DNA of 59,156 bases from a virus (Duplodnaviria; Caudoviricetes): positions 1-59,156 of the IMG/VR virus record IMGVR_UViG_3300042559_001610; one strand, written 5' to 3'. Both the position numbers and the translations under genes were made by a program. The notes below the pieces were generated by a model. It had not been told where the DNA came from. It worked only from the letters and a program-made list of their open reading frames with translations, and ran no database searches. Of this stretch, positions 1 through 58,152 are shown one piece after another (positions within the stretch are counted from its first letter, which is position 1; every line of letters begins with the position of its first letter).

Positions 1-3000
1 CAGATGTTCCACTAGATCCTGAAGTTCCTGAAGATCCTGAAGATCCTGAGGTTCCAGAAGAACCGGAAGTTCCTGAAGATCCTGAAGATCCAGAAGAACC
101 TGATGTACCTGAAGAACCTGAAGTTCCACTAGCTCCTGATGATCCACTTGTTCCTGAAGATCCAGATGTTCCTGATGAACCACTAGATCCTGAGAAACCT
201 GAGCTTCCAGATGTTCCTGAGCTTCCAGATGAACCACTTGTTCCACTAGATCCTGATGAACCACTAGTTCCTGAAGAACCAGATGTTCCACTAGATCCTG
301 AAGTTCCTGAAGTTCCTGAAGTTCCTGAGGTTCCAGAAGAACCTGATGTACCTGAAGAACCTGAAGTTCCACTAGCTCCTGATGATCCACTTGTTCCTGA
401 AGATCCAGATGTTCCTGACGAACCACTAGATCCTGAGAAACCTGAGCTTCCAGATGTTCCTGAGCTTCCAGATGAACCACTTGTTCCACTAGATCCTGAT
501 GAACCACTTGTTCCACTAGATCCTGAAGATCCTGAAGTTCCTGAAGATCCTGAAGATCCTGAAGAACCAGATGTTCCACTAGATCCTGATGAACCACTAG
601 TTCCTGAAGAACCAGATGTTCCTGAGGTTCCTGAAGATCCAGAAGAACCTGATGTACCTGAAGAACCTGAAGTTCCACTAGCTCCTGATGATCCACTTGT
701 TCCTGAAGATCCAGATGTTCCTGAAGAACCACTAGTTCCTGAAGAACCAGATGTTCCACTAGATCCTGATGAACCACTAGTTCCTGAAGAACCAGATGTT
801 CCACTAGATCCTGAAGTTCCAGAAGAGCCAGATGTTCCAGAAGTTCCAGAAGAGCCAGATGTTCCTGACGAACCACTAGATCCTGAATTTCCACTAGATC
901 CTGAAGATCCAGATGTTCCAGATGAGCCTGATGTTCCTGATGAACCAGAGGATCCAGAAGTTCCTGATAATCCTGAGGTTCCTGATGTCCCGCTTGATCC
1001 TGATGTCCCCGCGATTGCACCAACTGAGGTTAAGATAAATGAGTAGTATGAATTACCTTCAGTGTAATAAACAACCGACATTGAACTAGATTCGTTACTA
1101 TTAAGATATAGTCTAATAATCATTCGGTTGGTAGGATCGATCGATGTTGTTGGTAATACAATATCCATATTGACCTCAACTGGAATTACTGAAGTAACCC
1201 AACCGATTAGAGAAACGTTTGAGGTTATTGTTGGACCAATAGGAGTTCCTGCTGAATCTGCTAATTGTATTTCAACATAAGCATCAATATCATCATTACT
1301 TGCCTGTTTTAAATAGTGTAAATGAAATCTTTGTACACCACTTGGAATTACACTAAATCCTAATTGAGATGTAATATAATCAGAAACCAATACGTTTTGT
1401 TGATTACTAGTTAAATTGGTTGTTACTGTTTGTTGAGCAGCTCCAGATGGTGTAGTAGAAGCTACTTTATAACCTGAAACATCTGAATTTTGACTTTCGT
1501 TAAGGTAGTATACTTGTCCGGCTGAAATACCATTCTGTCCAGTAGCTCCGGTAGCTCCAGTAGCCCCAGAAGTTCCAGATGATCCAGATGATCCTGATGA
1601 ACCAGATGTTCCAGAAGATCCTGATGAACCTGATGTTCCTGAAGAACCACTTGTTCCAGATGATCCGGAGGTTCCTGATGAACCACTAGATCCTGATGCT
1701 CCTGATGTTCCTGAAGAACCTGATGTTCCTGAAGAACCACTTGTTCCAGATGAACCAGAAGTTCCAGAAGTTCCAGAAGAGCCAGAAGAACCTGATGTTC
1801 CTGAAGAACCTGATGTTCCTGAAGAACCACTTGTTCCACTAGCTCCTGATGAACCACTAGATCCTGATGAACCAGAAGAACCTGATGTTCCTGAAGAACC
1901 ACTTGTTCCACTAGCTCCTGATGAACCACTAGATCCTGATGAACCAGAAGAACCTGATGAACCAGAAGATCCACTTGTTCCAGAAGATCCTGAAGTTCCA
2001 CTAGATCCTGATGCTCCTGAAGAACCACTAGATCCTGATGCTCCTGAAGAACCAGATGTTCCAGAAGATCCACTAGATCCTGAAGCCCCACTAGATCCTG
2101 ATGAACCACTAGTTCCAGATGTTCCTGAAGAACCACTTGATCCACTTGTTCCTGAAGAACCAGAGGTTCCTGAAGATCCTGAAGTTCCAGAAGATCCTGA
2201 AGATCCACTAGTTCCTGATGAACCTGATGTTCCAGATGTTCCAGATGAGCCTGAAGTTCCACTTGATCCGTCTGCTCCTTGAGCTCCCCCTAGATTCACA
2301 TCCCACGAAGGGAATGTTCCGGATCCAAAGATTGATGTAATGTCTCCAACCAGTGCACCTGTTCCGGAGTTATAACTGGTAACAGTTCCCTCCATTCTAT
2401 TAGTAGGTGAGTTTGCAATTACCAGTGATTGTCCTGTAGTATAAGATAACCCTGTTCCTACAGTTAAGCTTTGAGCTCCTGTTGCTATTGTTAAGCTTGT
2501 AACTGAGGTTGTTGCATATCTGTCTCCCGATAGACCAGAAGTTCCTGAAGAACCACTTGTTCCTGAAGAACCGGACGATCCAGAAGTTCCGGAAGAACCG
2601 GATGTTCCTGAAGTTCCAGATGAGCCTGATGTTCCAGAAGAACCAGATGTTCCGGACGATCCAGAAGTTCCGGAAGAACCAGAAGTTCCTGAAGAGCCAC
2701 TAGCTCCCGATGATCCTGAAGAACCAGAGGTTCCTGAAGAGCCACTAACTCCTGATGATCCTGAAGAACCAGAGGTTCCTGAAGAGCCACTAACTCCTGA
2801 TGATCCTGAAGAACCAGAGGTTCCTGAAGAACCAGAGGTTCCTGAAGAGCCACTAGCTCCTGATGATCCTGATGATCCTGAAGAACCAGAGGTTCCTGAA
2901 GAGCCACTAGCTCCCGATGATCCTGATGATCCTGAAGTTCCACTTGTTCCTGAAGTTCCAGATGAACCTGATGAACCAGCATCTCCTGATGTTCCTGAAG

Positions 3001-3045
3001 AACCAGAAGTTCCTGAAGAACCTGACGAACCAGCAGTTCCTCCTG
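1..3045. repeat. 9-bp-period coding repeats (Gly-X-Y) with longer internal duplications
   Basis: Units such as cctgaagaa/ccagatgtt/ccactagat; the block starting at 91 recurs at 334 and partly at 640. Confidence 0.9.
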
Positions 3046-3889
3046 TGATAGTTACAGTAACAAAGTCCCCGTCTGCAGATACAGATTGAACTCCTGCTCC
3101 CGTAAATAAAATTCCGGTTGCTCCGGGGGAAGCTAATCCGGTAGGACCATATATTCCAACAGGAGATCCTGTTCCCCCACCTCCACCAGTAATATTGTCG
3201 GTGATGTAGAGAGTATCTAAGTTGTAGATTGCTTCTTGTGCTCCGTCCTGAAATTCATATCCTAGATCTGCTGAGATCTGCCAAGAAAATAATTTATTAG
3301 GTGTCGGCTCAGAAATTGGATTTTGAACGTCTCCTCCTAGTGGGGTAGTTCCTGAAGCCAATTCTGTCCCAGGCTCATCCCAGGTTAAAAAAAAGTCTAT
3401 GGTCTGTAAAGAAGGATCTGAATTTACAACTTCTGTAATTCTATATTTATGAAATCCTCCAGGGATAGGAAGACCAGTATTATTGTTTACTGAAGAAGTT
3501 AAAATAATAAATCCGGAGGTAATATCCGAAACAGTACTTTGACCGGTAATATCTAAATATTCTGCTCCAGTAACTATGTAATTTCCAGGGGTCTCGAGAA
3601 TTTGAAATGTTGCTGTCCCGGTAGCTCCTGAAATCTCAGAAACTGTAATTTCCCCAAGAAGGGAATCTAGAGATTGAATGTATGCAGTTCCTCCAAATCC
3701 GGTTGAACCTGATATTAGCTGAACTATTTGACCTTCCCTTATGTAGTTAAATTCTCCACTCCCGGTAGGAACCCCTGTTATAACATTACTTCCTATTGAT
3801 AAATCCCCATAGGTAGAAGGAGCCCCCGAGATAGGAACGACAGTTCCATACTCGTAGATTGTTATTCCTCCTGTTATAATGTTTGACAT
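1..3889 (-). CDS. Large tail-fibre/collagen-like virion protein with (Gly-Ser/Thr-Ser)n blocks; 3' end runs off the window
   Basis: Absent from the ORF track because there is no stop in the window. ATG at 3889 (MSNIITGGITIYEYG...), frame consistent down to position 2. Three GSS/GTS triplet blocks (~3040-2535, ~2280-1540, ~1010-1) are separated by globular segments (DRYATTSVTSLTIATG...; ISAGQVYYLNES...). Confidence 0.85.
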   Translation of the reverse strand, partial: MSNIITGGITIYEYGTVVPISGAPSTYGDLSIGSNVITGVPTGSGEFNYIREGQIVQLISGSTGFGGTAYIQSLDSLLGEITVSEISGATGTATFQILETPGNYIVTGAEYLDITGQSTVSDITSGFIILTSSVNNNTGLPIPGGFHKYRITEVVNSDPSLQTIDFFLTWDEPGTELASGTTPLGGDVQNPISEPTPNKLFSWQISADLGYEFQDGAQEAIYNLDTLYITDNITGGGGGTGSPVGIYGPTGLASPGATGILFTGAGVQSVSADGDFVTVTITGGTAGSSGSSGTSGSSGTSGDAGSSGSSGTSGTSGTSGSSGSSGASGSSGTSGSSGSSGSSGASGSSGTSGSSGTSGSSGSSGVSGSSGTSGSSGSSGVSGSSGTSGSSGSSGASGSSGTSGSSGTSGSSGTSGSSGTSGSSGTSGTSGSSGTSGSSGSSGTSGSSGTSGLSGDRYATTSVTSLTIATGAQSLTVGTGLSYTTGQSLVIANSPTNRMEGTVTSYNSGTGALVGDITSIFGSGTFPSWDVNLGGAQGADGSSGTSGSSGTSGTSGSSGTSGSSGSSGTSGSSGTSGSSGTSGSSGSSGTSGTSGSSGSSGASGSSGSSGTSGSSGASGSSGSSGASGSSGTSGSSGTSGSSGSSGSSGSSGSSGSSGASGTSGSSGTSGSSGSSGSSGSSGASGTSGSSGTSGSSGTSGSSGSSGTSGTSGSSGTSGSSGTSGSSGTSGASGSSGSSGTSGSSGTSGSSGTSGSSGSSGTSGSSGSSGSSGTSGATGATGATGQNGISAGQVYYLNESQNSDVSGYKVASTTPSGAAQQTVTTNLTSNQQNVLVSDYITSQLGFSVIPSGVQRFHLHYLKQASNDDIDAYVEIQLADSAGTPIGPTITSNVSLIGWVTSVIPVEVNMDIVLPTTSIDPTNRMIIRLYLNSNESSSMSVVYYTEGNSYYSFILTSVGAIAGTSGSSGTSGTSGLSGTSGSSGSSGTSGSSGTSGSSGSSGNSGSSGSSGTSGSSGTSGTSGSSGTSGSSGTSGSSGTSGSSGSSGTSGSSGTSGSSGTSGSSGTSGSSGASGTSGSSGTSGSSGSSGTSGTSGSSGTSGSSGSSGTSGSSGSSGSSGTSGSSGSSGTSGSSGSSGTSGSSGSSGTSGSSGFSGSSGSSGTSGSSGTSGSSGASGTSGSSGTSGSSGTSGTSGTSGTSGSSGTSGSSGTSGSSGSSGTSGSSGSSGTSGSSGFSGSSGSSGTSGSSGTSGSSGASGTSGSSGTSGSSGSSGSSGTSGSSGTSGSSGSSGTSGSSGTS

Positions 3890-3961
3890 CTGTGAATTTT
3901 TCTCTTTTTTTAATTAAGTTCTTAGAGTATTTATCCTCCAAGTAAATTTGATCTTCTAGGA

Positions 3962-4903
3962 TTAGAAGTCGAATCTGATAAGGGTATTTAGAGAAGAACT
4001 TAAGTTCTGAACACTAAATACATTCGGACTTCCTGTCAAAGTCATAGAAGCAGCAACAATTGCTCCGGAAGAAACTAGTTGTGCTCTAATTATTGGAAAA
4101 TAACTATTTAAAATAGTAGTATTTAAACCTGCTCCATTTGTAGAACTTTGAGGAAGAGTTAAAGCATAAGAAGGACCTGATCTAGCCCCGGTAGAAACCA
4201 GCATTGAAAGTAGCTGGCAGTCTGCCCCAGACGGAGCACCCACTGTGCATCCGGTTGAAGATACAGAAGAGGTTTTAAATGCTTTGCTATATGCCCCATC
4301 AGATCCGCTGAAAGCTCCGGAATTTGCAACAGTAACTGTGAAATTCGAAGCAGTTACTGCAGTTACGATAGCATAAACATTATCCACGTTACAATTTCTA
4401 ACGATTACATAATCACCTACAATTAATCCACCTGGATCAGTTGTAATTGTGAGACTTGTTCCTGATCTTGTCCATGCTAGACTGTAGTAAACTGTAGAAC
4501 TAGAAACCGCCCATATTTGAGAATCTGTTAAGTTGTCATACATTTGATATCTAGAAACCGAGTTGTAGGATTGTCCAGAACCAACTACTCCAGTTGCTCC
4601 TCTTTCTCCTGCTGCTCCAGTTGCACCGGCAGATCCGGTTGCTCCAGCTGGTCCAGCAGATCCAGTTGCACCAGGTGATCCAGCTGGTCCAGCTGGCCCA
4701 GTTCCAGCAGGTCCTACAGGTCCAGTTGGTCCTGCATTTCCACCAGGAGCAAAATATGGTAAATCGTTCCAAGGATCGATACCATTTCCAAATTTAGCCT
4801 GATTGGTGTCTGTTTCGTATCCCATTTCCGCCAGCAACAAAACCGGATTGTTTATTTCCCAGTTTGCTGAGGTGTCTCTTCTCATTTGAATTCTAAAAGC
4901 CAT
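3962..4903 (-). CDS. Tail fibre protein: Mtd_N/hyaluronidase-type N-terminal domain plus short collagen repeat
   Basis: IQMRRDTSANW..NPVL...EMGYETDT...KFGNG..PWNDLPY motif followed by GPTGPVGPAG repeats. Confidence 0.8.
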   Translation of the reverse strand: MAFRIQMRRDTSANWEINNPVLLLAEMGYETDTNQAKFGNGIDPWNDLPYFAPGGNAGPTGPVGPAGTGPAGPAGSPGATGSAGPAGATGSAGATGAAGERGATGVVGSGQSYNSVSRYQMYDNLTDSQIWAVSSSTVYYSLAWTRSGTSLTITTDPGGLIVGDYVIVRNCNVDNVYAIVTAVTASNFTVTVANSGAFSGSDGAYSKAFKTSSVSSTGCTVGAPSGADCQLLSMLVSTGARSGPSYALTLPQSSTNGAGLNTTILNSYFPIIRAQLVSSGAIVAASMTLTGSPNVFSVQNLSSSLNTLIRFDF

Positions 4904-4923
4904 TTACTTGTTGTATTTTTTGA

Positions 4924-5109
4924 TTATGCCGGACCTGTAGCTCCGCCAAGGCAGATAAAGTAGGGAAGAGAATTCCAAGCTGTAACTCCATCCCCGATTT
5001 TTAAACAATTGCTTGTTAAATCTAGAGCAAGTTCTGCTTCTAAAAGAACAGGATTTGTTGCTGCCCAGTTAACAGCTGTGTCTCTTCTAATTTGTATTCT
5101 AAAGGCCAT
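4924..5109 (-). CDS. Stand-alone Mtd_N-like domain (short paralog of the adjacent fibre N-terminus)
   Basis: MAFRIQIRRDTAVNWAATNPVLL...KIGDGVTAWNSLPY is near-identical in motif to 3962..4903. Confidence 0.7.
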   Translation of the reverse strand: MAFRIQIRRDTAVNWAATNPVLLEAELALDLTSNCLKIGDGVTAWNSLPYFICLGGATGPA

Positions 5110-7100: not shown

Positions 7101-7562
7101 TTATAAATCTTTTTTCATCGGTCTTCCCGAAGAATCAAAAGAACCCACCAGGTTCTCATATTGCTTGAACATTCTTTCCAGAACTTCTTTGCCAACTTTT
7201 TTCTCTCTAGATTCGTCTCTTTCTAAAGCTTCATTTAAAGAGATGTCAAAGATCTGAAACTCTACAGAAGCATAAGGTTGAACCAATTTAGCGAAGTGTT
7301 CAATGTACTTCTTTTTCAAGTTTGTGTTGTCAATAACGACATTTATCCCTTTTGCCAAAGCGTCTAAGATCACGGAGTCTTGGATTGTGTTAATTAGACT
7401 TTCGATCTTGGGTTCACAGATCGGTTGATCTTTCAACATGAATCTAAAATCATCTCTGCTAACTCTAACCCAGTCAGGATTTGTTCTAACAAAGTCTAAC
7501 GACCAGGTGGATTTGCCCGAAGCCGGCACACCTATCAAGATGAGAACTTTCAAATTTTCCAT
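7101..7562 (-). CDS. Polynucleotide kinase, kinase domain only (T4 PseT N-terminal-like)
   Basis: GVPASGKST Walker A, VSRDDFR, VVIDNTN, R-D-SR lid. Confidence 0.85.
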   Translation of the reverse strand: MENLKVLILIGVPASGKSTWSLDFVRTNPDWVRVSRDDFRFMLKDQPICEPKIESLINTIQDSVILDALAKGINVVIDNTNLKKKYIEHFAKLVQPYASVEFQIFDISLNEALERDESREKKVGKEVLERMFKQYENLVGSFDSSGRPMKKDL

Positions 7563-7593: not shown

Positions 7594-8627
7594 TTAATTT
7601 TTAAATATTGCTGTGAAATGAACGACCGAATACTTGGACCCTTCTATCCTAACAATTTTAGAGCCGACCATCATCTCTCCGTTGCTCTGAACCGTTGCAA
7701 TATCTTCTACAACTCTAGAGAGATGCCTTAATTTGTCTAATGGAAAAGAAGGATCTTCGAAAACCGAATGATCTGAAACTATGCATTCTCCAACATCAAA
7801 TAGCTGGTCAACTACAAAATTTGCAATTCTAGTTGTTCTTCCTGATCTTCTGGGGTTTATTTCGTACATATTCTTTAATAAAATATACGACTACAAAGGG
7901 ATTATTTCTATTTTTCTTTAGACTTATTTTCCTTTAAAGCCCACTTCGTAAATATTAATCTTGTCAATTGAATTATTGTCCAGGAAATCCAAATACTCAA
8001 AGTGACCCTGGTAGCTGTCTGGAAATTTAGGGTCGTAAGGATACCATCCTAATCTTTTACCGTCACTGCCATAGTACTCATCGATCATACTTAGGAGGGA
8101 TTCCCAATTGTCAGAAGAAGCTATTGGACAGTGATTTTGCTCGTGATAAGCTACGTAAACCCAGTTCATATTATTCATTCTTGTGTAAATTTTTGTTCTA
8201 CTTCGATTATTTGCGGTGCCATGTATAAGTGCATCAGGATCCCTGCTTTATCCGAGTCCAAACCTATCAACCAATCTTTACCCAGACCCTTGATGTCCTC
8301 CTTATTGATTAAGAAATCGTGAATGTACTGGCTTTGTCTAATCAGTTCTTGTTTTTGTTCTTCTGTTTCTACTATTATTTTCATGGTTTAATTAGATAAA
8401 GGTGGTGAGATTGATATTCTATATTTCAAAGATCTATCGTTAACATCTATAATACCAAAAGTAACTGATTTATCCTCGGGATTAATTAGAGTTCCTATTA
8501 TATCGTAACCGTCCATTTTACCAAGCACTTGTTCAACTTCATTGACTAAATCCATAGGAATTTTAGTTTCAACCTCAGATTTTTCAAATGTCTCCGGGTG
8601 GTAATAATCTCCTTTGTATGTTTTCAT
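7594..8627 (-). CDS. Four small hypothetical proteins (7594-7869, 7924-8178, 8175-8384, 8388-8627)
   Basis: Contiguous minus-strand ORFs. Confidence 0.6.
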
Positions 8628-8631
8628 ATTT

Positions 8632-9942
8632 TTAATTTGATAATGGGGCTTTGATTGTCGGATGGGACTTATAATTTTCTAGAATTACATCATTGGTTGA
8701 ACTGCAGAAAATACCATCTCTGACATGAACCGTTGGTAACTCAAATGGCTCTCTAGTTCTTCTTGGAATGCACCATTGATCAATTTCGGAATGAGATAAT
8801 GTTGAGCTATCCCCTGCTGTATAGATTTGACTAAACATTTCTGGGCTAACCAGATCCCTTCTTTCTTCCAGGGTCAATTCCCTTCCAATCTGTTCTTTTG
8901 CTTGTTCAAGGTGGTTAAGGTAAAGGTGGGTGTCACCCAAATTACCAATTAATTCATCAGGAACCATATTCACCTCGTCTGCAATCATCATTAGGAGTAG
9001 CCCATAAGAAGCTATGTTGAAGGGAAGTCCCAAAAAGGTATCTATGCTGCGCATATTAAACATTAAAGAGATTGCTCTGGTTGGAATATTCCATCCATTC
9101 AAATCTTCATGTTCAAAATTTTCAATATGTCCTTTTGGTTCCCACCCAGCTTTAAGTCCTAATTGTATTCTTTCAAGTCGATTCAACTCTCTTGTATAAA
9201 CTTGAAATCCATAATGACATGGAGGGAGCAACATCTGCGAAATTTCAGATACGTTCCAGCTATTAACCATTAGACGTCTTGAGTCTGGGTTTGTTTTAAG
9301 GTCGTTGATTAGGTTTGCGATTTGGTCTATTGGTTGATTTTTGTCTCTTTCTTTTATTAATCTACTAGCTTCCTCATGAAGATATTCGTCTGTAATTCCA
9401 TTACCAACTTCAATAAGAGTATCTATAACAGTCTCTAATGATATAGAGTCTATTTTAGGTATAGACCAACTTCTCCACTGCTTACCATAAATTGGGCCTA
9501 GTTCTCCAAATCTTTTAGAAAACTCATCATCTGTTTTGATTTTGTTGATGAATTCTTCTTGTGATAAAGGTGCCCATTGTAACCCGCCATCAACCAACTT
9601 CAACCATTTGTTAGACTGTTCTTCAGTTAAGTTACAACTACCATCTGATTCTTCCCACCATTTGGTATAAAACTTATAGCAGTCTCCGTCCCAAATATGA
9701 CAGTTATTTTCCAAAAGGTACCTTAGATCGGTTCTGCCCTGGAGGAACCACAGAAGCTCTGCTACTACCGAATTCCAGTGAATTTTTTTGGTGGTAATTA
9801 AGGGGAACCCTCCAGACATTTTATGACGAATTTGTCTACCAAATACTGAAATGGTTCCAGTTCCTGTGCGGTCTCCTTTTTGTACACCATTATCAAGAAT
9901 GTCTTGTAATAGGTCTGTGTATGATTTATCTAGGTTGTTCAT
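8632..9942 (-). CDS. thyA: Thymidylate synthase with large insertions
   Basis: DRTGTGT, ELLWFL, GPIYGKQWR, DSRR, LPPCH, RSIDTFLGLPFNIASY, DTHLYLNH. Confidence 0.95.
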   Translation of the reverse strand: MNNLDKSYTDLLQDILDNGVQKGDRTGTGTISVFGRQIRHKMSGGFPLITTKKIHWNSVVAELLWFLQGRTDLRYLLENNCHIWDGDCYKFYTKWWEESDGSCNLTEEQSNKWLKLVDGGLQWAPLSQEEFINKIKTDDEFSKRFGELGPIYGKQWRSWSIPKIDSISLETVIDTLIEVGNGITDEYLHEEASRLIKERDKNQPIDQIANLINDLKTNPDSRRLMVNSWNVSEISQMLLPPCHYGFQVYTRELNRLERIQLGLKAGWEPKGHIENFEHEDLNGWNIPTRAISLMFNMRSIDTFLGLPFNIASYGLLLMMIADEVNMVPDELIGNLGDTHLYLNHLEQAKEQIGRELTLEERRDLVSPEMFSQIYTAGDSSTLSHSEIDQWCIPRRTREPFELPTVHVRDGIFCSSTNDVILENYKSHPTIKAPLSN

Positions 9943-10159
9943 TTGTTAAATTTTTTACTTGTATCACATCGATGATGGATTTCAGGTGATTTGCCATTCT
10001 CTGATTAGGTTTACATCTTTCTACTGACGAGATGTATTTGTGGAAAAAATATTTCAAGCTATCAACATCAGATAATTCAGCTCCTGGTAATGAGACTTCA
10101 ACTTCTATATTGTCAAAAACATATTCTTTTTGGTAGGGTAGTTTGTTTAATTTACTCAT
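9926..10159 (-). CDS. Hypothetical protein
   Basis: ORF overlapping the thyA start. Confidence 0.6.
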   Translation of the reverse strand: MSKLNKLPYQKEYVFDNIEVEVSLPGAELSDVDSLKYFFHKYISSVERCKPNQRMANHLKSIIDVIQVKNLTNEQPR

Positions 10160-10538
10160 AACTTTCTATTGTTTTATCGTTGTATGTTATTGTGATTAGT
10201 TTGGTTGGAATGTTCCTTGTTGTTAATTTAGCATCAATAAAATTATCAAATGGCGGTTCATAATTATTTTTAACCCCACCAGTATATTCTTTACAGTATA
10301 AATCAATTCTTTCATCCCTACTCAACTCTCGTTCTTCAATCTTTAATCCCCACTTTTCGGAGAATGTTTTATCGTAAGTACATAAATCAACAAACATTTC
10401 TTTGTTGGGTTTTCGGTAGGTTGATTTACCATCCAATCGTTTAACTAAAAGACACATCCCAATAGAATTATCCTTTTCATATTCCTTTGAATAATTCTCA
10501 TAAGCATCATTCAATAATTCTTGTTGTTCTTTATTCAT
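10152..10538 (-). CDS. MNKEQQELL family paralog (ThyA-insertion-like)
   Basis: Conserved ends MNKEQQELL..AYENY / WGLKIEERELS / NIPTKLITITYNDKTIESYE. Confidence 0.8.
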   Translation of the reverse strand: MNKEQQELLNDAYENYSKEYEKDNSIGMCLLVKRLDGKSTYRKPNKEMFVDLCTYDKTFSEKWGLKIEERELSRDERIDLYCKEYTGGVKNNYEPPFDNFIDAKLTTRNIPTKLITITYNDKTIESYE

Positions 10539-10926
10539 AACTTTCTATTGTTTCGTTGTTGTATGTTATTGTGATTAGTTTGGTTGGGATATTGTTTTTA
10601 TCCATTGTTATTTGTTTCACATCATTGACTGAATGTTGAATAAAAACTTCTTTTCCAGAAGAATACATTCCTTCTAATCTAGCAATTTGAATTTCACATC
10701 GCTCTTCAAAACTCAACTCTCGTTCTTCAATCTTTAATCCCCACCTTTCAAAGAATTCTGTGTCGGTTTTACATTTGTTGATGAATTGTTCTTGCGTATA
10801 AGGTACGGGTATATTCATCTTACCAGCAGGAGTATTAACTTCCATCTGATTCAACCATTTTATGTGGCCTCCTTTTAGATAGTTTTCGTAAGCCTCATCC
10901 AATAGCTCTTGTTGTTCTTTATTCAT
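10531..10926 (-). CDS. MNKEQQELL family paralog
   Basis: Same conserved blocks. Confidence 0.8.
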   Translation of the reverse strand: MNKEQQELLDEAYENYLKGGHIKWLNQMEVNTPAGKMNIPVPYTQEQFINKCKTDTEFFERWGLKIEERELSFEERCEIQIARLEGMYSSGKEVFIQHSVNDVKQITMDKNNIPTKLITITYNNETIESYE

Positions 10927-11260
10927 AACTTTCTATTGTTTTATTAAAATACATTAAATCTTTACCAATAGTTTTTTTGAACATTTTTTCTATATTCGGA
11001 ATGGGATTTGATTTATCCGTTTTACCATTTTTAGCCCACCCATGGTCACAACTAAAATAGTGAATTTCACCATTTTTTTGATAAACATCATAATCATAAT
11101 CTTGCCACGAAATGGTATGTATGTCCTCAAGTTTATCGGGAGTAGAATCCCAAGAAAAGGCTTTTGGTACAATAACCTCTTTTCTAGTATATTTTTTTCC
11201 TCTATACTCTACATAATGAGAGTATTCAATTTTTTTACTTGGATTACGTAATTCATTCAT
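10919..11260 (-). CDS. Hypothetical protein ending in the shared KTIESYE tail
   Basis: Unrelated body, shared 3' junction sequence. Confidence 0.7.
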   Translation of the reverse strand: MNELRNPSKKIEYSHYVEYRGKKYTRKEVIVPKAFSWDSTPDKLEDIHTISWQDYDYDVYQKNGEIHYFSCDHGWAKNGKTDKSNPIPNIEKMFKKTIGKDLMYFNKTIESYE

Positions 11261-11639
11261 AACTTTCTATTTTTTTATCGTTGTATGTTATTGTGATTTG
11301 TTTGGTTGGAATGTTTGATTCATTTAATACTAATTCATCTTCTATAATTAATCTTCCATTTCTATCATAAAAATCTTTCTTATTATCACTCTTACTTACA
11401 AGAATTTTCGTTCTCTCTTCCAAACTCAGCTCTCGTTCCTCAATCTTTAATCCCCACCTTTCAGAGAAGTCAGAATCAGTTTTACATTTGTTGATGAATT
11501 CTTCTTGTGTGAATTTAACCATTGTGGCAAACGGAAGTTCTCCAACTAACTTACCTGCAGTCGTCATCGGGTTTGTTCCCCAACACTTGCAATAATTCTC
11601 ATAAACCTCATCCAATATCTCTTGTTGTTCTTTATTCAT
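11253..11639 (-). CDS. MNKEQQELL family paralog
   Basis: Same conserved blocks. Confidence 0.8.
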   Translation of the reverse strand: MNKEQQEILDEVYENYCKCWGTNPMTTAGKLVGELPFATMVKFTQEEFINKCKTDSDFSERWGLKIEERELSLEERTKILVSKSDNKKDFYDRNGRLIIEDELVLNESNIPTKQITITYNDKKIESYE

Positions 11640-12846
11640 AACTTTCTATTGTTTTATCTGTTGATGATATCGTAATTGGAATATCTAAATATTGTAATGA
11701 CATTTTTGGCTGTACCATAATATCATAGGATAAAACGTTTCCGTCATCATCAAACTTTGGTTTAATATTATAATCTACAATTTCCTGACCAACTAGACTT
11801 TCAATCCAATCTACAAATTTTTCTTTTTTATCCGTTTCTCCGTCCATAGGTTTCATACATTCCCCCGTACAACTATCACCGCAGTTATACATGCATCCTT
11901 TTGTTCCAAAATTCATAATTTTCTATTGTTTTGGTTTAAAACTTTGTAATTCACTAGCAATTGTTTTAGCACTTACATTTTTAACAATTGGAAAAGAAAG
12001 TGAGTCCCAATCAATCGGATGACTCTCAGCTTTTGGAATTATAATAAATTCCTCATTTTTCCATTTATAATCATCAGAACCAATATTCCAAAGACCTGAT
12101 GCGTATTGAGTAGCACGTAATCCAGTTTTGGTAATATATTCGGTATAAAATCCATATACAAAATTATGGCCGCAACCAGTTTCATATAAATTCTCACCAT
12201 TAAAAGAAAAGATTGAAACTTTATCTTCTGTGATTTCTGTTACTAATTTTTTTGTTTCATTCTTTATGTCCTCTTCAGTCACATAAACCAGATGAAATTT
12301 GTTTTGTTCTTTATTCATAACTTTCTATTGTTTTGTTTTTTCAAATAACACCTTCAACTGGTCTCGAAAAACCGTCATTACTAAATCTTCCGCTAAAAGA
12401 TGTCCGATTGGATTAAGCATATCTTCGCAATGCTGACATCCTAAGAAAACATTTTCCTCTAAACCTAGTAAGGTCATTTTTGTTGAAACACCTAATTGAC
12501 CGATTGGATAATGTTCAGATGGTTCTCCTCTTTTCATATCACTCAGAAATTCTACTTCTAAACCTTCATTAACTTGTTTCATTAAATCTACGGCAGAGAT
12601 AATGATAGGACTAATTTCTTTATTCATAACTTTCTATTTTTTAATGGGGTCAATACTTATTGGGAGACCTGATTCTGGGTTTGACAAACACACATTATAC
12701 CATCCTGGGATTAGTCCATAATAAAAATATACTTGTCTAATGGTTACAATTTCTAACCAATACCACCCGCCATCAAATCTTTTAGGGAACCATAAAAACT
12801 TAGTTTTATATCTATAGTCACCATCTTTTGGTCTATTAATTTTCAT
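11632..12846 (-). CDS. Four unrelated hypothetical genes inside the junction-repeat array (11632-11916, 11923-12318, 12325-12627, 12634-12846)
   Basis: Each is bounded by the AATAGAAAGTTATG junction repeat. Confidence 0.7.
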
Positions 12847-13264
12847 AACTTTCTATTTTTTTATCGTTGTATGTTATTGTGATTAGTTTGGTTGGGATGT
12901 TAAGTGAATTGAATCTATCGTGTGATAGTTCTGATACACCTGGTTCCCATTGTCTTTTATACACATTATTTCTTTCTTCCAAACTCAATTCTCGTTCTTC
13001 AATCTTTAATCCCCACCTTTGAGAGAACTCAAAATCGGTTTTACATTTGTTGATAAATTCTTCTTGGTTATATGTTCTATACCCATATGCAAAAGATGGA
13101 TTTGTGAAATGTTCATAATATACATCATACTCAACTAAACATCCATCTAAATACCCCTTAATTTTATCTAACCCTGTTTCAATTCCATTTATAGTATATT
13201 CAAGATATTTCTCATAAGCCTCATCCAATAACTCTTGTTGTTCTTTATTCATTATTATTTCCAT
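12836..13264 (-). CDS. MNKEQQELL family paralog (true start probably 13252)
   Basis: Same conserved blocks. Confidence 0.8.
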   Translation of the reverse strand: MEIIMNKEQQELLDEAYEKYLEYTINGIETGLDKIKGYLDGCLVEYDVYYEHFTNPSFAYGYRTYNQEEFINKCKTDFEFSQRWGLKIEERELSLEERNNVYKRQWEPGVSELSHDRFNSLNIPTKLITITYNDKKIESYEN

Positions 13265-15581
13265 GATTTGGTTGAGGCTAAACCACTATAGTGGCAAATT
13301 GATTCTTCTTTTAGTTCCTTTAATTTTTCTATAATCTCATCAGAAAAATAAACTCCATCACTTTCTATATCTGCAATTGTTTTATGAATCGTTTTGACCT
13401 TAATGGGGGTTGATTTTTTAAATTGTTTAATTATTATTAAAATATTTTTCAATTGCTTCCAATTTATCGTCAGCTTCAACTAGAAGTTGTAAAGCTTCAG
13501 TTGCGTCTTTCAAGAAATCGTTTGCAGTGTGATCCCCTATGCCAACCCCCTGATTTTCTAATAAATCTAACACCATAAGTGCCTTCTCTTTGTCAGCCAT
13601 CGCTTGTGCTTTTAAAGCTGATATTACTTTTGTTTTTCTCATATTCTTTTATTATTTTTATTCAATCGACCAAGTTACCTCCCCAAGTTCAACATTTGAA
13701 TTCATTTCAACCTCCAAGAAATTTAATCCCATCTCTAATCCAATCAAAGTTATAGAATATCCAGAAAAAGTTTCCTCCTCTTGATTTATTCTGCTCTGCT
13801 CTGAAAGGTGGTCCTTTAGAATTTCAGACTGTTCCTCTGTCAGGTTAATTATCAACTTTTTGTTTTTCTCTTTCATTTTATCTTTCATCAATTTAATTTT
13901 ATTTTTCTAATCTCCTCCAATAGAGCTAAACCTACTCTAACATCAGAGTCAAACATTCTGGTTAAATCCCTTTCCAGCTTTACAATTCTTATCATTTCAG
14001 ATTCCAAATTAGCTTTAAATAGGCGAGAAGGAAGCCATTGTTTTGCAAACTCTGCATCGGTTTCTATCCTTTTGGCAAAGCTTCCATACAGAACTGCATT
14101 GTCTGTTGTGTTCTCGATGACATAATTTGTATATGCTAATTTTAATTCTTCTTCGTTAATTTTCATTTTGTTAGGATTTATTTTTTTGCTAGGATTTAAT
14201 TTAGATCCCAGCAAATTTCAGTTAATAACTCGTCTCCTTCTCCAAGTACAACAACTTCTCTTTTGTGCTGATCGTTGAATGATTTTGTTGTTTTGATTTT
14301 CTCGTCATCCCTAGGCATCCACAAGTTGGGTTGATCGTAATGATTAAGTTTAGCTAATCGAACTAGCTCATTATAGTCTTTGTCCTGAAGATGTCCTTTT
14401 AAAGGCATTAGACCCCCGACGCAAGTATTCCAAGTTAGCTTTCTACCGTTATAGGTGATCCAATAATAATCCCATTCATCTTCGCCTATTGCTACCAATC
14501 TTTCGATTTTCCAGCTAGCATTAATTACAAATTGTCCCTTTAGCCTTTCGAATTCTTCTATTATTCCGCCTTTATTATCATTCATGATTGTAAAATTCTT
14601 CTAAGTTTATACCGTCAATCTCTCCAGATGTTCCGATAATGATTGGTTTTCCGGCTGTTTTATCCGATAAAACCGGAAATGCCTGATCCCACATTTGGAC
14701 CAGAACCTCTGGAGGGTATCCCAAAAAAAGTTCGTCTTCTGCGGAAATGTGGTTAGGTCGTCTACCGTTTTTCATCTCTTTTTCTTAGTCCTAATATTCT
14801 CATTTTTTAAACTTGTATGTAATTTGATAACCCCATAATCTCTTCATATGCACATCCATACTCGAAACAAATGCCGTGGATAATTTTTGGATTATCCCCT
14901 GTGTACCTATAAATCTCATATCCGGTTAATTTGGATTTCCCTGCTGGGATTAAATATGGGGAATTTATTCTTTCCGAGGTTAAAAAAGTAACCATCGGGG
15001 ATTCCTTATAAGAAGGGGCTTCGTATATTTTCTCAGGAGGTTTGACCGGAGCTATGACTTCAGAAATGATCTTATGGGGCTTCCTTTCGATAAATGATTC
15101 TTCTACTAAGGGTCTATTAACTAAGGTTTTAACAGCCGATGCAATTTCTTCTATTGCAGGCTGTGGGGATTTCTTAGGTTTTTTCTTTAAAAAGCTCAGC
15201 ATTTTATCTTTTTATTTTCCAGTTGATAAGAAACCAAAGGGTAAACATTCCGGGGATAAGCATCCACCAAATCCATTCTAGATGATTGTGTTGGACACCA
15301 GCCATTTTCTGAGCTAAATAAAATACTGTCGGGATAATCCAAATATGAATTGTTCCTGTTGGGCTAAAATTTTCTCTTTTTTCTATTTTCATTTCTTATT
15401 TTATTTTAGTGGCCCAAACAGAGTCTGGGAAAACTTCGGATCTTAATTTTAGTAGCTCGTCTCTGTGTGCTTGGAATTCGTCACCGTGAGAAGGCTGATG
15501 CCCCTTAATGATTGCTGTAGTCATTTCTAGATCTAGCTTTATGATGCGAGAAGTTTTTTCTTGGTATTCTTGAAAGTCCAT
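13255..15581 (-). CDS. Run of about nine small hypothetical proteins
   Basis: Contiguous or overlapping ORFs; 13888-14214 has a remote AYTNY...ETDAEFAKQW similarity to the MNKEQQ family. Confidence 0.6.
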
Positions 15582-24716: not shown

Positions 24717-25493
24717 TTAGTATTTATTTAGTTTTAGGATTCCTTTTTCTTTATTGAAACAGTGAAGAGATGTGATGTGCATTGCATAATAACCTGGGGT
24801 AACGTCTCCCCATCTTTCAGGGTCTCTGTTTTTCAATTCGTCTAATACCCACATTAATTTTCTGCAAGCCATATAAATATCATCCCTAAAGTGTCTGATG
24901 TAGTCACAGGATCTAATGTAATATACGATATGAAGGTGATTTCCTCTTCTCATAAAATGATATCCGATTGTGCAAGGAACTCTTTCCCCATGAACTACCC
25001 CGGTGTCTTCCGGAAACCACATTGGAAGAAAAGCCTGTCTAGTAAAAGGTTCTTTCTGAAGTAGATTCAGAACATCTCCAAAATCCCCATAGTCATACCT
25101 GATCCCTTTCATGACTGTATTGGGTTCTTTGTCTGCATATCTAGGCCAAAGTCTTTCTGGATAAGTGTGGGAGAATTGACTGTGCCCTCCAAATTGCTCG
25201 TTGTTCTTCTGAGCAAAAGGCCACCACTCATGAGAAGGGGGAGGATTTAAAGGAAGACCTCCGATTCTTTCTTCAAAGTGATCGTCAGCCCAAGGTAAAT
25301 TTGGACGAACTTCTTCTCTTAACTCTTCTAGGGTTTGAGGTATGAAACACTGAAACGAGTGATTCATAATCTCGTTCATATCGTCAGGGGAATCTATCCC
25401 TTGCCACTTTTCAGTTTTAACAACGTATCCGTGATTGGAAAGTTTTTCTTTAGACCATTTGATTGCGTCTGAGAACTTTGAGAATGTCTTCAT
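24717..25493 (-). CDS. Thymidylate-synthase-fold nucleotide-modifying enzyme (probable dCMP hydroxymethylase-like)
   Basis: TRQA, VPCT, IRSCD...DD, ITSLH; Asp at the position of E. coli ThyA N177. Confidence 0.7.
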   Translation of the reverse strand: MKTFSKFSDAIKWSKEKLSNHGYVVKTEKWQGIDSPDDMNEIMNHSFQCFIPQTLEELREEVRPNLPWADDHFEERIGGLPLNPPPSHEWWPFAQKNNEQFGGHSQFSHTYPERLWPRYADKEPNTVMKGIRYDYGDFGDVLNLLQKEPFTRQAFLPMWFPEDTGVVHGERVPCTIGYHFMRRGNHLHIVYYIRSCDYIRHFRDDIYMACRKLMWVLDELKNRDPERWGDVTPGYYAMHITSLHCFNKEKGILKLNKY

Positions 25494-56102: not shown

Positions 56103-57203
56103 TTATACTTCCTCCTCAGATTTAGTTTCAAACGGTCTTGAATATACAGGTTTTATCATTTGCCAGATTTTAGAATTTGGATCTCTCCCATCTGCAATCA
56201 GAAATAAAATTCCAGTGCTAATTCTCGAGTCTTTCACCGACAAAAATGCTTCAGCAATTTGCTTTCTGCTCATCTCTTCTGACTTTAAGATGGAATTTAC
56301 TTGAGCAACGTGAAGGGACTTTATAAAGGAAAATTTACTTCTAAGATCAATTTCAACTTTTCTTATCCAATCGTAAAATTCGTCTGGAACGTTATTCAAG
56401 AAAGTTTCTGGTAATTCCCCATTAGTTTTTAAAAAATCCCAAACATCATAAGTTGAAACCTGAGTTACAATTCTGTGGAGTCTCACATATTCTTCAAACT
56501 TAATTTTACATCTTAACCCAGAAGGAAAAAATCTAAGAACAAATCCCTCCTTATTTGATTCATTTCTGTCTTTTAATTTTAGAAATAAGTCTTCCTTATC
56601 TCTTTCCATTAAAGTTGGAACTATGTCCTCTTCTAAAATTCCGTTTGATTTGAACACAGATTTTGCAGTCCCCCAATTCAATTCTCCGGCTGGGGTAGAA
56701 GCAGTTATAAAAACAAAGGTCTCCAAATCCCCATAATCTACAACTATTCTATTTTCTTTAAAAATGATTTCTCCAATATAAGCAACCTCTGACATGAATT
56801 TATCTAAATTGTATTTAGATTTTATAATTTCAAACCCTCTGACGGCTTGATCTGAAGTAAAAGACCCTCTAGATGAGAATACCCATTTCCCTTTGTAGTT
56901 AAATAATATCCCCAGAGAACCGTCCATTTTTTCTTGAACGTAGATGTACTCTGAAGAATTGATTAGGTTCTCATTTTCGTCTATCCTTTCCTCGTAGTTG
57001 AAGAATTTAGGAATTGGTCTAACTAGGATTTCTCCAGTTGACGAGTCAACTATTAGACCCCGGCAAGCCAAAGTCACGTCGTCCCATTGACCATCGTATT
57101 GAGTCTTCTGAGTGTAGTTATAAATAGTCAGCGGAAGAGTTGGATGCACTTGAGACATCAACCAACCTTCAGCCACATAAGCGTCTAAAATTTCTTTGTT
57201 CAT
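56103..57203 (-). CDS. T4 Rnl1-family RNA ligase
   Basis: CRGLI, KFFNY, EKMDGS, EGFV, KIKFEEY. Confidence 0.9.
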   Translation of the reverse strand: MNKEILDAYVAEGWLMSQVHPTLPLTIYNYTQKTQYDGQWDDVTLACRGLIVDSSTGEILVRPIPKFFNYEERIDENENLINSSEYIYVQEKMDGSLGILFNYKGKWVFSSRGSFTSDQAVRGFEIIKSKYNLDKFMSEVAYIGEIIFKENRIVVDYGDLETFVFITASTPAGELNWGTAKSVFKSNGILEEDIVPTLMERDKEDLFLKLKDRNESNKEGFVLRFFPSGLRCKIKFEEYVRLHRIVTQVSTYDVWDFLKTNGELPETFLNNVPDEFYDWIRKVEIDLRSKFSFIKSLHVAQVNSILKSEEMSRKQIAEAFLSVKDSRISTGILFLIADGRDPNSKIWQMIKPVYSRPFETKSEEEV

Positions 57204-57348: not shown

Positions 57349-58152
57349 CTAAATTGGAAGTTTAACTCTCGAAAGCATTTGATTCGAAACGTGGGTGTAA
57401 ATTTCAGTAGTCTTAGAAGATGAATGTCCTGCGATCTTTTGAATTATTCTAAGATCTGTTCCAGATTCAAGAAGGTTGGTAAAAGAGGAATGTCTAAGAG
57501 TATGGATGGATGATTTGTCATCTATATATTTCTTATAGATTTTTTGACAGCTTCCTATTGAATACTTCAGAGAATTTTGTCCATTAAAAAGATACACTTT
57601 AGGTTTAAAATTTCTCCAGTATTCTCTAAGAAGTTCCAAGACTATCTGAGAAAGTGGAACAATCCTATCTTTTCTACCTTTGGCATTTTTAATGTGAATT
57701 ATCATCCTTTTTGAATCGATATCCTCTATTTTAAGATTGATAATTTCGGACACGCGGAGTCCTACTGAGTAAGTTAATGTTAAAATTGTCTTGTGTTTTG
57801 GATTTTCAATTAAATTTAATTTAGATAAAATAAATTCCGAATCAATTACTTTAGGTAGTTTCTTTTCTGACCTTGGTCTTTTGAAAGAAACTTTATCGTA
57901 CTTTTTATTTAAAATCTCCTTATATAAAAATCGGATAGCATTAATTACTTGGTTCTGCTGCGAGATAGAGGTGAATTTATAGTTATCTAAGTAAGATTGA
58001 AAATCAGAAGAATTGCAATGTATAATCTGTTTATTATTTAAACTTTCTAAAAAAGGTTTGATATGAGATAAATAATTATCTCTTGTTCTAGGAGAATAGT
58101 TTAAGTATATAAATTTTTCTTCACAAATCTTTATAATTTTTTGATTTTTCAT
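57349..58152 (-). CDS. Tyrosine recombinase (integron-integrase-like, no obvious IntI insertion)
   Basis: YS.RT..NY N-terminal domain, GLRVSE, KGRKDR, HTLRHS, AGH....TEIYTHV. Confidence 0.92.
   Translation of the reverse strand: MKNQKIIKICEEKFIYLNYSPRTRDNYLSHIKPFLESLNNKQIIHCNSSDFQSYLDNYKFTSISQQNQVINAIRFLYKEILNKKYDKVSFKRPRSEKKLPKVIDSEFILSKLNLIENPKHKTILTLTYSVGLRVSEIINLKIEDIDSKRMIIHIKNAKGRKDRIVPLSQIVLELLREYWRNFKPKVYLFNGQNSLKYSIGSCQKIYKKYIDDKSSIHTLRHSSFTNLLESGTDLRIIQKIAGHSSSKTTEIYTHVSNQMLSRVKLPI

Follow-up and report, generated by a model that had tools for sequence, protein, structure and literature searches.

We describe a putative cassette system on thymidylate synthase in a tailed virus (Duplodnaviria; Caudoviricetes), found in a 59,156-base stretch of DNA that we call the window, which is IMG/VR record IMGVR_UViG_3300042559_001610, amounts to about 21% of the estimated genome and carries nearly all of its genes on the minus strand. 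The thymidylate synthase gene of this virus, thyA, holds in-frame variable stretches bounded by short conserved anchors, and the same anchors recur in four small paralogous genes upstream of it, each enclosing two variable cores of its own. Our favoured explanation, to which we give a probability of roughly 0.72, is that anchor-guided recombination moves loop modules among ThyA-derived mini-proteins and thyA. Two components of this explanation, the homology of the scaffolds and the exchange of modules over evolutionary time, are well supported by the sequence comparisons presented here. Thymidylate synthase is a highly conserved and well-studied enzyme, on which exchangeable surface loops are unexpected, and a full-text literature search, judged mostly on abstracts, returned no description of exchangeable inserts in phage ThyA or of the paralog family.

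The thyA gene (8632-9942, minus strand) encodes 436 amino acids and matches PF00303 over its full length (E 3.7e-87; 292.3 bits against a cut-off of 24.3), which places its product in that family. Its best solved relative is the Enterococcus faecalis thymidylate synthase (TS) 3uwl (E 2.6e-65), whose residues 2-153 align with residues 5-160 of the phage protein. Across 25 aligned ThyA relatives the invariant positions include C242-H243 of the PPCH motif, R25, R222-R223, R298-S299-D301 and H339-Y341, which we take to be the catalytic Cys and the Arg, Ser, Asp, His and Tyr residues that bind nucleotide, and the protein, which has four variable inserts, is accordingly predicted to be a thymidylate synthase with its full catalytic set. 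The closest named relatives of this thyA belong to Flavobacterium phage immuto (54% protein identity) and two uncultured huge phages, the remaining GenBank phage ThyA proteins showing about 35% identity or less, and at least half of the sampled words of the region 8632-13264 are present in each of twenty lake-water metagenome runs.

Three of the four variable stretches have the make-up of cassettes, which fall into two classes. Site 1, the class-1 cassette, follows the IWDGD motif (9505-9693, minus) and consists of a 5' anchor (9667-9693, residues 84-92), a core that differs in every one of the 25 aligned relatives (9562-9666, residues 93-127) and a 3' anchor (9505-9561, residues 128-146). Together with its 3' anchor, this site aligns with the insert of the E. 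faecalis and Lactobacillus casei type of TS (3uwl, 1lca), which is presumably the "small domain" of those enzymes. Site 2, the class-2 cassette, is a hairpin after the FQVYT strand (9076-9195, minus), with a 5' anchor at 9169-9195 (residues 250-258), a core that is hypervariable among the same relatives at 9091-9168 (residues 259-284) and a short 3' anchor at 9076-9090 (residues 285-289); among lake-metagenome contigs some align to both of these anchors while omitting the core. Site 3, a second class-2 unit after the KEQ(I/L) helix (8758-8886, minus; residues 353-395, core 8773-8859), behaves as a presence/absence unit: it occurs in 73 of 117 ThyA open reading frames (ORFs) and is missing from 44, and it is found in 10 of the 25 aligned ThyA proteins. 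The first-pass annotation of this DNA had regarded the unit (GRELTLEER...CIPR) as family-like; its match to the family profile is not significant alone (domain E 3.6). The fourth stretch, T1b, lies between the QWRxW and IDQI motifs (9331-9465, minus; residues 160-204), varies in length from 6 to 45 residues in most relatives and is as variable as the other sites, with low model confidence in the predicted ThyA structure. As regards inteins, ThyA matches PF00303 alone, with no Hint or splicing domain, and the inserts measure just 26-45 residues. The isolate genome of phage immuto encodes a ThyA with the same three inserts, and insert-bearing ThyA proteins near family genes are 336-479 residues long, apart from two of 628.

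The four paralogs, all on the minus strand, are P0002 (10152-10538, 128 residues), P0003 (10531-10926, 131 residues), P0004 (11253-11639, 128 residues) and P0005 (12836-13264, 142 residues as listed, its conserved start probably lying at 13252). They and the ThyA segments quoted in the first-pass annotation were found at the positions given there. Mutual identity among the paralogs is 45-50%, and their alignment holds 45 invariant columns in three constant blocks that enclose two unalignable cores, which bears out the earlier description of constant anchors flanking hypervariable cores; the middle block of P0002 is more diverged than that of the others. Similarity to ThyA is evident in direct BLASTP comparison (E 5e-7 for P0004, 1e-6 for P0005), and a profile of the four paralogs matches ThyA twice and in the same order, with model positions 11-64 at site 1 (E 5.7e-7) and 62-129 at site 2 (E 3.4e-5). 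A larger family profile covers ThyA residues 89-146 and 244-302, and among the remaining ORFs of the window it finds nothing significant besides ThyA and the family. The first matched segment begins at the IWDGD motif, takes in the insert and stops just short of the ELGPIYG motif; the second begins at the FQVYT strand, takes in the hairpin insert and extends into the strand with the nucleotide-binding Arg-Ser. At the DNA level, repeat family D7 (59 nt, 71-80% identity) links thyA with three paralogs and D9 (40 nt, 65-73% identity) links thyA 9063-9102 with all four; a 23-nt exact identity between thyA 9541-9563 and P0004 (11487-11509), reported earlier, was confirmed and lies inside repeat families D7 and D10.

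None of the paralogs has a Pfam match at E ≤ 0.1 or a PHROG family, the Cys-bearing segment is absent from them, and they fall outside the ThyA family by the measure that ThyA itself passes. Because the site-1 insert and its 3' end align with the Enterococcus and Lactobacillus enzymes, we regard the anchors as native ThyA sequence, and judged from these alignments the paralog scaffold is derived from thyA, with about 100 catalytic-core residues between the two segments and everything outside them lost. The earlier proposal that the paralogs are built from the insertion segments of ThyA thus needs amending: the insert flanks do match, but the similarity extends into the ThyA core on both sides. 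An AlphaFold2 model of P0004 has a mean pLDDT of 91.5, and the order of its helices and strands is that of the two corresponding segments in the ThyA model.

The family to which these paralogs belong comprises 567 clusters at 50% identity (E ≤ 1e-3) with intact reading frames, and 7603 of 8000 scored candidates pass E ≤ 0.01 against the family profile. No match to P0003 was found by tblastn in 50,697 GenBank phage records, and searching the family alignment against one genome per species for 185,579 prokaryote species yielded no relative; as far as searched, the family is large and restricted to viruses. An unrooted tree on 57 anchor columns separated 45 sampled family scaffolds from 45 sampled ThyA scaffolds by a single branch with support 100, so that, to judge from these columns, the scaffolds remain separate while the cores move. 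Some members depart from the common layout: three proteins of 164-172 residues (L021:9824-10318, L025:5007-5525 and L031:9166-9669) share an N-terminal extension of about 60 residues before the usual scaffold, and in two others (L058:5079-5594 and L049:7359-7835) the class-1 3' anchor is duplicated, with an extra segment between the copies. Another ORF of the window (13888-14214, minus, 108 residues) resembled the N-terminal half of the family in motifs seen by eye; its profile E value was 0.15, and we dropped it as a candidate.

The evidence that modules have moved comes from a comparison set of 155 related viral contigs, with 77 family-anchored and 78 thyA-anchored loci, for the latter of which we took 80 stretches from at least 584 matching ones. 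Cores were cut by profile-guided alignment, the anchors were removed and all unique cores were compared with each other, a match being defined by E ≤ 1e-3 and coverage of at least 60% of the shorter core; wrong-class comparisons and T1b served as internal controls. First cores of paralogs had a match in ThyA site 1 in 26 of 139 cases, and the reverse held for 17 of 81, while second cores of paralogs matched site 2 in 40 of 162 cases and site 3 in 23 of 162. Sharing also extends between the class-2 sites of the enzyme, with 18 of 93 site-2 cores matched in site 3 and 30 of 57 site-3 cores matched in site 2. Wrong-class pairings gave 0 matches, and T1b gave 0 with anything else (0 of 87 cores common to paralogs or other ThyA sites). 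Grouped by similarity, class-1 cores formed 108 clusters, 13 of them found in both paralogs and ThyA, and class-2 cores formed 151 clusters, of which 20 are common to paralogs and site 2, 7 to paralogs and site 3, and 8 to sites 2 and 3.

The window itself takes part in this sharing. Matches were found for the second core of P0003 in ThyA site 2 of locus L027 (71% identity over 35 residues, E 5e-16), for the first core of P0005 in ThyA site 1 of L106 (62% over 45 residues, E 2e-20), and for the site-3 core of the window's ThyA in site 2 of L131 (69% over 29 residues, E 6e-12). Median identity of cross-context core pairs, that is between paralogs and ThyA sites or between ThyA sites, is 63-81%. 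Loop swaps between thyA and the paralogs, which the first-pass annotation had suggested looking for in related genomes, are therefore found as class-specific core sharing.

The boundaries of the shared tracts coincide with the anchors. Contigs L058 and L044 each have a paralog that agrees with the resident thyA at 122 of 125 nt from 5' anchor to 3' anchor, with no other DNA similarity between the two genes, and L045 carries the same identical core at the protein level. Across 43 rows of cross-context high-scoring segment pairs, the match reaches a median of 23 nt beyond the core on the 5' side and 21 nt on the 3' side; class-1 cross-context matches go further on the 3' side, to about 53 bases. 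Of the 25 ThyA pairs whose core DNA identity is at least 90%, one (L011 with L054) shows a difference by cassettes. Identity between these two genes is about 99% as far as the site-2 5' anchor and returns to that level in the flank behind site 3; in the interval the site-2 cores are unrelated, the sequence between the two sites has visibly diverged further, and L054 alone has a site-3 unit, of 153 nt. This difference has the appearance, in the aligned genes, of a recent cassette replacement. Occasional longer tracts would be expected to carry ThyA-type residues past the anchors into a few family members, and such residues occur as a ThyA-type flank after the second core in 2 of 144 unique members and as the ThyA type of a class-1 anchor residue in 19 members, against the paralog type in 70. 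Within paralogs, 28 of 54 first-core clusters are paired with more than one second-core cluster, and all four combinations occur in 16 cluster pairs, so that the two cores of a paralog assort independently. A core found at ThyA site 2 of one phage can, moreover, stand at site 3 of another. These comparisons sustain the suggestion, made in the first-pass annotation, of a recombinational reservoir, in that cores recur between the paralogs of one phage and the ThyA sites of another, and one within-genome tract is bounded by anchors; what they show is exchange over evolutionary time, as distinct from programmed or frequent switching.

Both modules and anchors bear signs of selection. The pooled dN/dS of cores is 0.16 for 211 same-site pairs and 0.13 for 43 cross-context pairs, values based on ungapped pairs of equal length alone that are non-independent and were picked by protein similarity, which biases them down; with that reservation the cores appear to be under purifying selection. 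In anchor codons the third position is the most variable, which indicates that the constant blocks are selected as protein. At conserved residues, synonymous-codon entropy is nevertheless 0.41 in the anchors of the family and 0.45 in those of ThyA, below the 0.67 of the remaining ThyA core, a difference with p ~3e-6 for the family and ~2e-6 for ThyA that holds within 11 of 12 and 15 of 16 amino-acid types, respectively. Such reduced synonymous variety fits either a DNA-level constraint or repeated homogenisation at recombination sites.

The paralogs sit in an array of small genes (9926-12846, minus) joined by a conserved stop/start junction, of which there are nine copies. The junction measures 24-27 nt, lies at nine consecutive gene boundaries (10150-12863, minus) and makes the upstream stop overlap the next ATG; searching the window with its 24-mer and allowing up to 3 mismatches gave seven matches, all at 10150-12641 on the minus strand, where 0 are expected by chance. 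Six genes read the junction as a common C-terminal tail, and three stop at an earlier TAG in another frame, so the junction appears conserved at the DNA level. Interspersed with the paralogs are six unrelated ORFs, all on the minus strand (9926-10159, 10919-11260, 11632-11916, 11923-12318, 12325-12627 and 12634-12846), for which Pfam and PHROGs gave no family except one PHROG of unknown function for 12634-12846. Two of these, 10919-11260 and 11632-11916, carry the C-terminal residues of the family, the appearance that replacement of entire genes at the junction would give. A promoter and terminator scan of 8000-15000, whose models leave Bacteroidota-type promoters outside their scope, showed no excess over shuffled sequence (27 vs 29.4 and 3 vs 3.1). 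Linkage of the family to insert-bearing thyA, which had been anticipated for other phages, is seen in them as well: thyA lies within the fetched DNA in 42 of 77 family-anchored loci, and where both occur, the family genes share the strand of thyA in 90 of 90 cases and lie upstream of it in 86 of 90.

Under the cassette explanation, the phage ThyA would be a working-type enzyme whose surface holds in-frame variable modules of two classes, class 1 at site 1 and class 2 at site 2 and, in some phages, at site 3, each bounded by short conserved anchors. The upstream paralogs would be miniature non-catalytic ThyA scaffolds, made up of anchors and adjoining strands, with one class-1 and one class-2 module each. 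Because the anchors are common to paralogs and thyA, homologous (homeologous) recombination or gene conversion could shift whole modules from paralog to paralog, between paralog and thyA, and between ThyA sites 2 and 3, both within a genome and between co-infecting relatives, and the array would serve as a library of loop modules, presumably expressed, that exchanges with thyA. We infer that the paralogs are translated, folded proteins and that the modules are surface-exposed interaction or evasion loops. General phage recombination machinery would presumably drive the exchange, possibly helped by endonuclease cuts; a study of lambda Red reports phage recombinases acting on diverged sequences (PMC2327257).

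Several observations weigh against this explanation or limit its reach. The sole clear recent intragenomic event is one tract in three related contigs, most transfers must be old given their median identity, and the dN/dS estimates carry the bias stated above. Similar same-class core pairs within one locus number just 5 of 451. A family member lies within 6 kb of thyA in just 8 of the 78 thyA-anchored loci, at least 3 kb of upstream DNA being available in 63 of them, and phage immuto has no paralog beside its three-insert thyA; most insert-bearing thyA genes therefore vary with no array beside them, and exchange confined to thyA alleles may be enough. Structural equivalence of paralog and ThyA, proposed earlier as a check, holds for the order of secondary-structure elements but not for overall similarity scores: viral thymidylate synthase clusters rank first and third among the neighbours of the paralog model in the ESM Atlas, yet at TM 0.44 and 0.48, under the usual 0.5 bar, Foldseek of the model against PDB gave no match at E ≤ 0.001, and VIA-align against 48,161 chains gave a best Z of 3.3 with no thymidylate synthase listed. 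The Foldseek and VIA-align misses do not establish that the two folds differ. Finally, contigs from four lake-metagenome runs break at the anchors, and many join anchor to anchor with the core skipped or replaced, which fits a community rich in alternative modules, in which strain variants and related phages are not separable.

The rarity of similar cores within a genome also bears on what the paralogs are for. The first-pass annotation had considered them decoys that mimic the ThyA surface for a host sensor or inhibitor; in such a role they would soak up that factor, and module sharing would keep the mimicry current. The scaffold and module classes common to paralogs and ThyA would suit this role, as would the loss of all catalytic segments and the position directly upstream in a tightly coupled gene row without an excess of promoter-like or terminator-like signals. 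Decoys should, however, resemble the resident ThyA. Similar pairs number 5 of 451, and in the window all eight paralog cores are unlike the cores of its own ThyA; thyA genes with inserts mostly lack a nearby paralog, and we know of no defence that senses ThyA. We consider mimicry of this kind quite unlikely. The few within-genome duplicates, together with the discreteness of the cores and their low dN/dS, seem instead to argue for distinct module functions over mere filler. That consideration likewise tells against the proposal that turnover is a by-product of conflict, with homing endonucleases cutting thyA near the variable sites and repair copying a paralog or a co-infecting allele, so that turnover, and perhaps the retention of paralogs as repair templates, would owe nothing to loop function. 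In favour of this proposal, in seven loci (L016, L026, L039-L041, L082 and L083) thyA is split inside the site-1 core into pieces of about 106 and 270-323 residues, and in L016 (11407-13395) pieces of 106 and 304 residues surround a 242-residue ORF with NUMOD1 (E 1.1e-5) and a weak match to an HNH-endonuclease PHROG (E 2.5e-4). Rfam found no intron or other RNA family in the four split-thyA loci searched. Flank co-conversion and endonuclease-split genes are known from T4-type phages, according to the portions of PMC2988022 consulted. The window's thyA, however, is intact as one ORF with no endonuclease gene adjoining, and the splits occur at site 1 alone, whereas exchange at sites 2 and 3 is at least as extensive. 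As a full account this proposal strikes us as unlikely; the endonuclease-like ORFs in split thyA genes could be one trigger of exchange, acting via flank co-conversion.

Two further accounts may be weighed. If the paralogs were inert relics of repeated partial thyA duplications, now decaying, shared cores would simply reflect the thyA copy of origin, and the clearly ThyA-derived scaffold agrees with such a history. Relics should not, however, form one clade apart from ThyA on anchor columns, keep intact reading frames across 567 clusters, show anchor and core substitution patterns consistent with purifying selection, or assort their two cores independently, nor would decay explain the same core at different ThyA sites in different phages or a tract in L058 whose identity ends exactly at the anchors; we regard this history as very improbable. 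Assemblers might alternatively have joined different phages at repeated anchors and so created false module combinations, and the short contigs of the four lake metagenomes, in breaking at the anchors, do suggest that these confuse assembly graphs. Exact anchor matches are just ~20-30 nt long, however, the immuto isolate genome has the three-insert ThyA, and contigs from three separate samples (L044, L045 and L058) show identical arrangements of paralog and thyA, which leaves an artefact scarcely credible. Returning to the cassette explanation, a more ambitious version of it would have the enzyme and its mini-scaffolds act as display frames for hundreds of individually conserved module types, each binding or evading a factor of the host or of a rival phage, with the anchors kept as DNA recombination sites so that the population re-deals its modules, perhaps triggered by endonuclease cuts in thyA. 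We hold this version as a tentative possibility and incline to doubt it.

Parts of this arrangement have counterparts in known systems. The insert of the E. faecalis and L. casei type of TS occupies the same position in the enzyme and has a homologous 3' end, but it is single and fixed, whereas the phage enzyme has a replaceable core, two further sites and flanks copied into a free-standing family. Donor-cassette gene conversion operates at pilE/pilS of Neisseria and at vlsE of Borrelia. Segmental gene conversion from donor cassettes is described for Treponema tprK (PMC8480903). As in those systems, variable regions lie within conserved sequence common to a main gene and nearby donors, and whole segments appear to be transferred, the evidence here being comparative. 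There, however, the donors are silent partial copies and the recipient is a surface antigen, whereas here the donors are complete ORFs with conserved start/stop junctions, apparently translated, and what receives the segments is a viral enzyme of cytoplasmic metabolism; exchange here also links two sites of one gene, and is known from the comparison of contigs, whereas frequent switching within one lineage marks those systems.

CDI and Rhs orphan toxin modules likewise form an array by the main gene, each module behind a short conserved motif that permits recombination. They swap a C-terminal toxin domain together with an immunity gene, whereas the phage modules, 20-60 residues long, are loops inside the protein that occupy two or three sites and have no immunity partner. 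Diversity-generating retroelements (DGRs) act through a reverse transcriptase, altering the adenine-templated positions of a core whose length is fixed; they too diversify defined variable regions of a phage protein on a constant scaffold, but here whole cores of differing length and unrelated sequence are replaced, and no reverse transcriptase was found among the 99 ORFs scanned in the window, which covers about 21% of the genome. Mobile repeats of the Rickettsia palindromic element type invade many genes in frame, whereas the family profile, in the window and in the compared loci, matches ThyA and the family alone and no assortment of unrelated genes. Homing-endonuclease traffic in phage nucleotide-metabolism genes, as exemplified in the consulted part of PMC2988022 by the T4 td intron with I-TevI and by the split nrdA of phage Aeh1, makes thyA a known target of mobile DNA, and relatives of the window have endonuclease-split thyA; the window's own gene has neither intron nor endonuclease, however, and the moving unit is a coding loop sequence that is kept in the protein.

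If the cassette explanation is correct, a virus can use an essential enzyme to carry a shuffled repertoire of peptide modules, and can spin off mini-scaffolds to hold more of them. The comparison would then provide a natural map of three ThyA positions that tolerate arbitrary inserts of 20-60 residues, define a large unannotated protein family confined to viruses, and offer a tractable system for short-homology recombination in phages, immuto-type Flavobacterium phages being cultured, though immuto itself lacks a paralog by thyA. It would also raise the question of what selects loop diversity on a nucleotide-metabolism enzyme during infection. Should the display-frame version hold as well, it would amount to a recombination-based repertoire system in a bacterial virus, distinct from retroelement-based diversification.

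Some other genes of the window deserve mention. A second, diverged thymidylate-synthase-like gene (24720-25493, minus, 258 residues) matches PHROG 160 (E 4e-25), with PF00303 under the cut-off; its product is possibly a paralog of the pyrimidine hydroxymethylase type, and if so it hints at modified DNA. The window has many genes of nucleotide metabolism and RNA repair, among them an RNA ligase (56106-57203) and a kinase-like gene (7101-7562). The stretch 5-5109 (minus) encodes a collagen-repeat protein of 1295 residues, truncated where the window stops, and after it two ORFs bearing Mtd_N, the N-terminal domain of the Bordetella phage tropism determinant; these genes probably encode tail fibres. 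A tyrosine recombinase/integrase gene (57352-58152, minus) is present in what otherwise looks like a large phage of virulent type.

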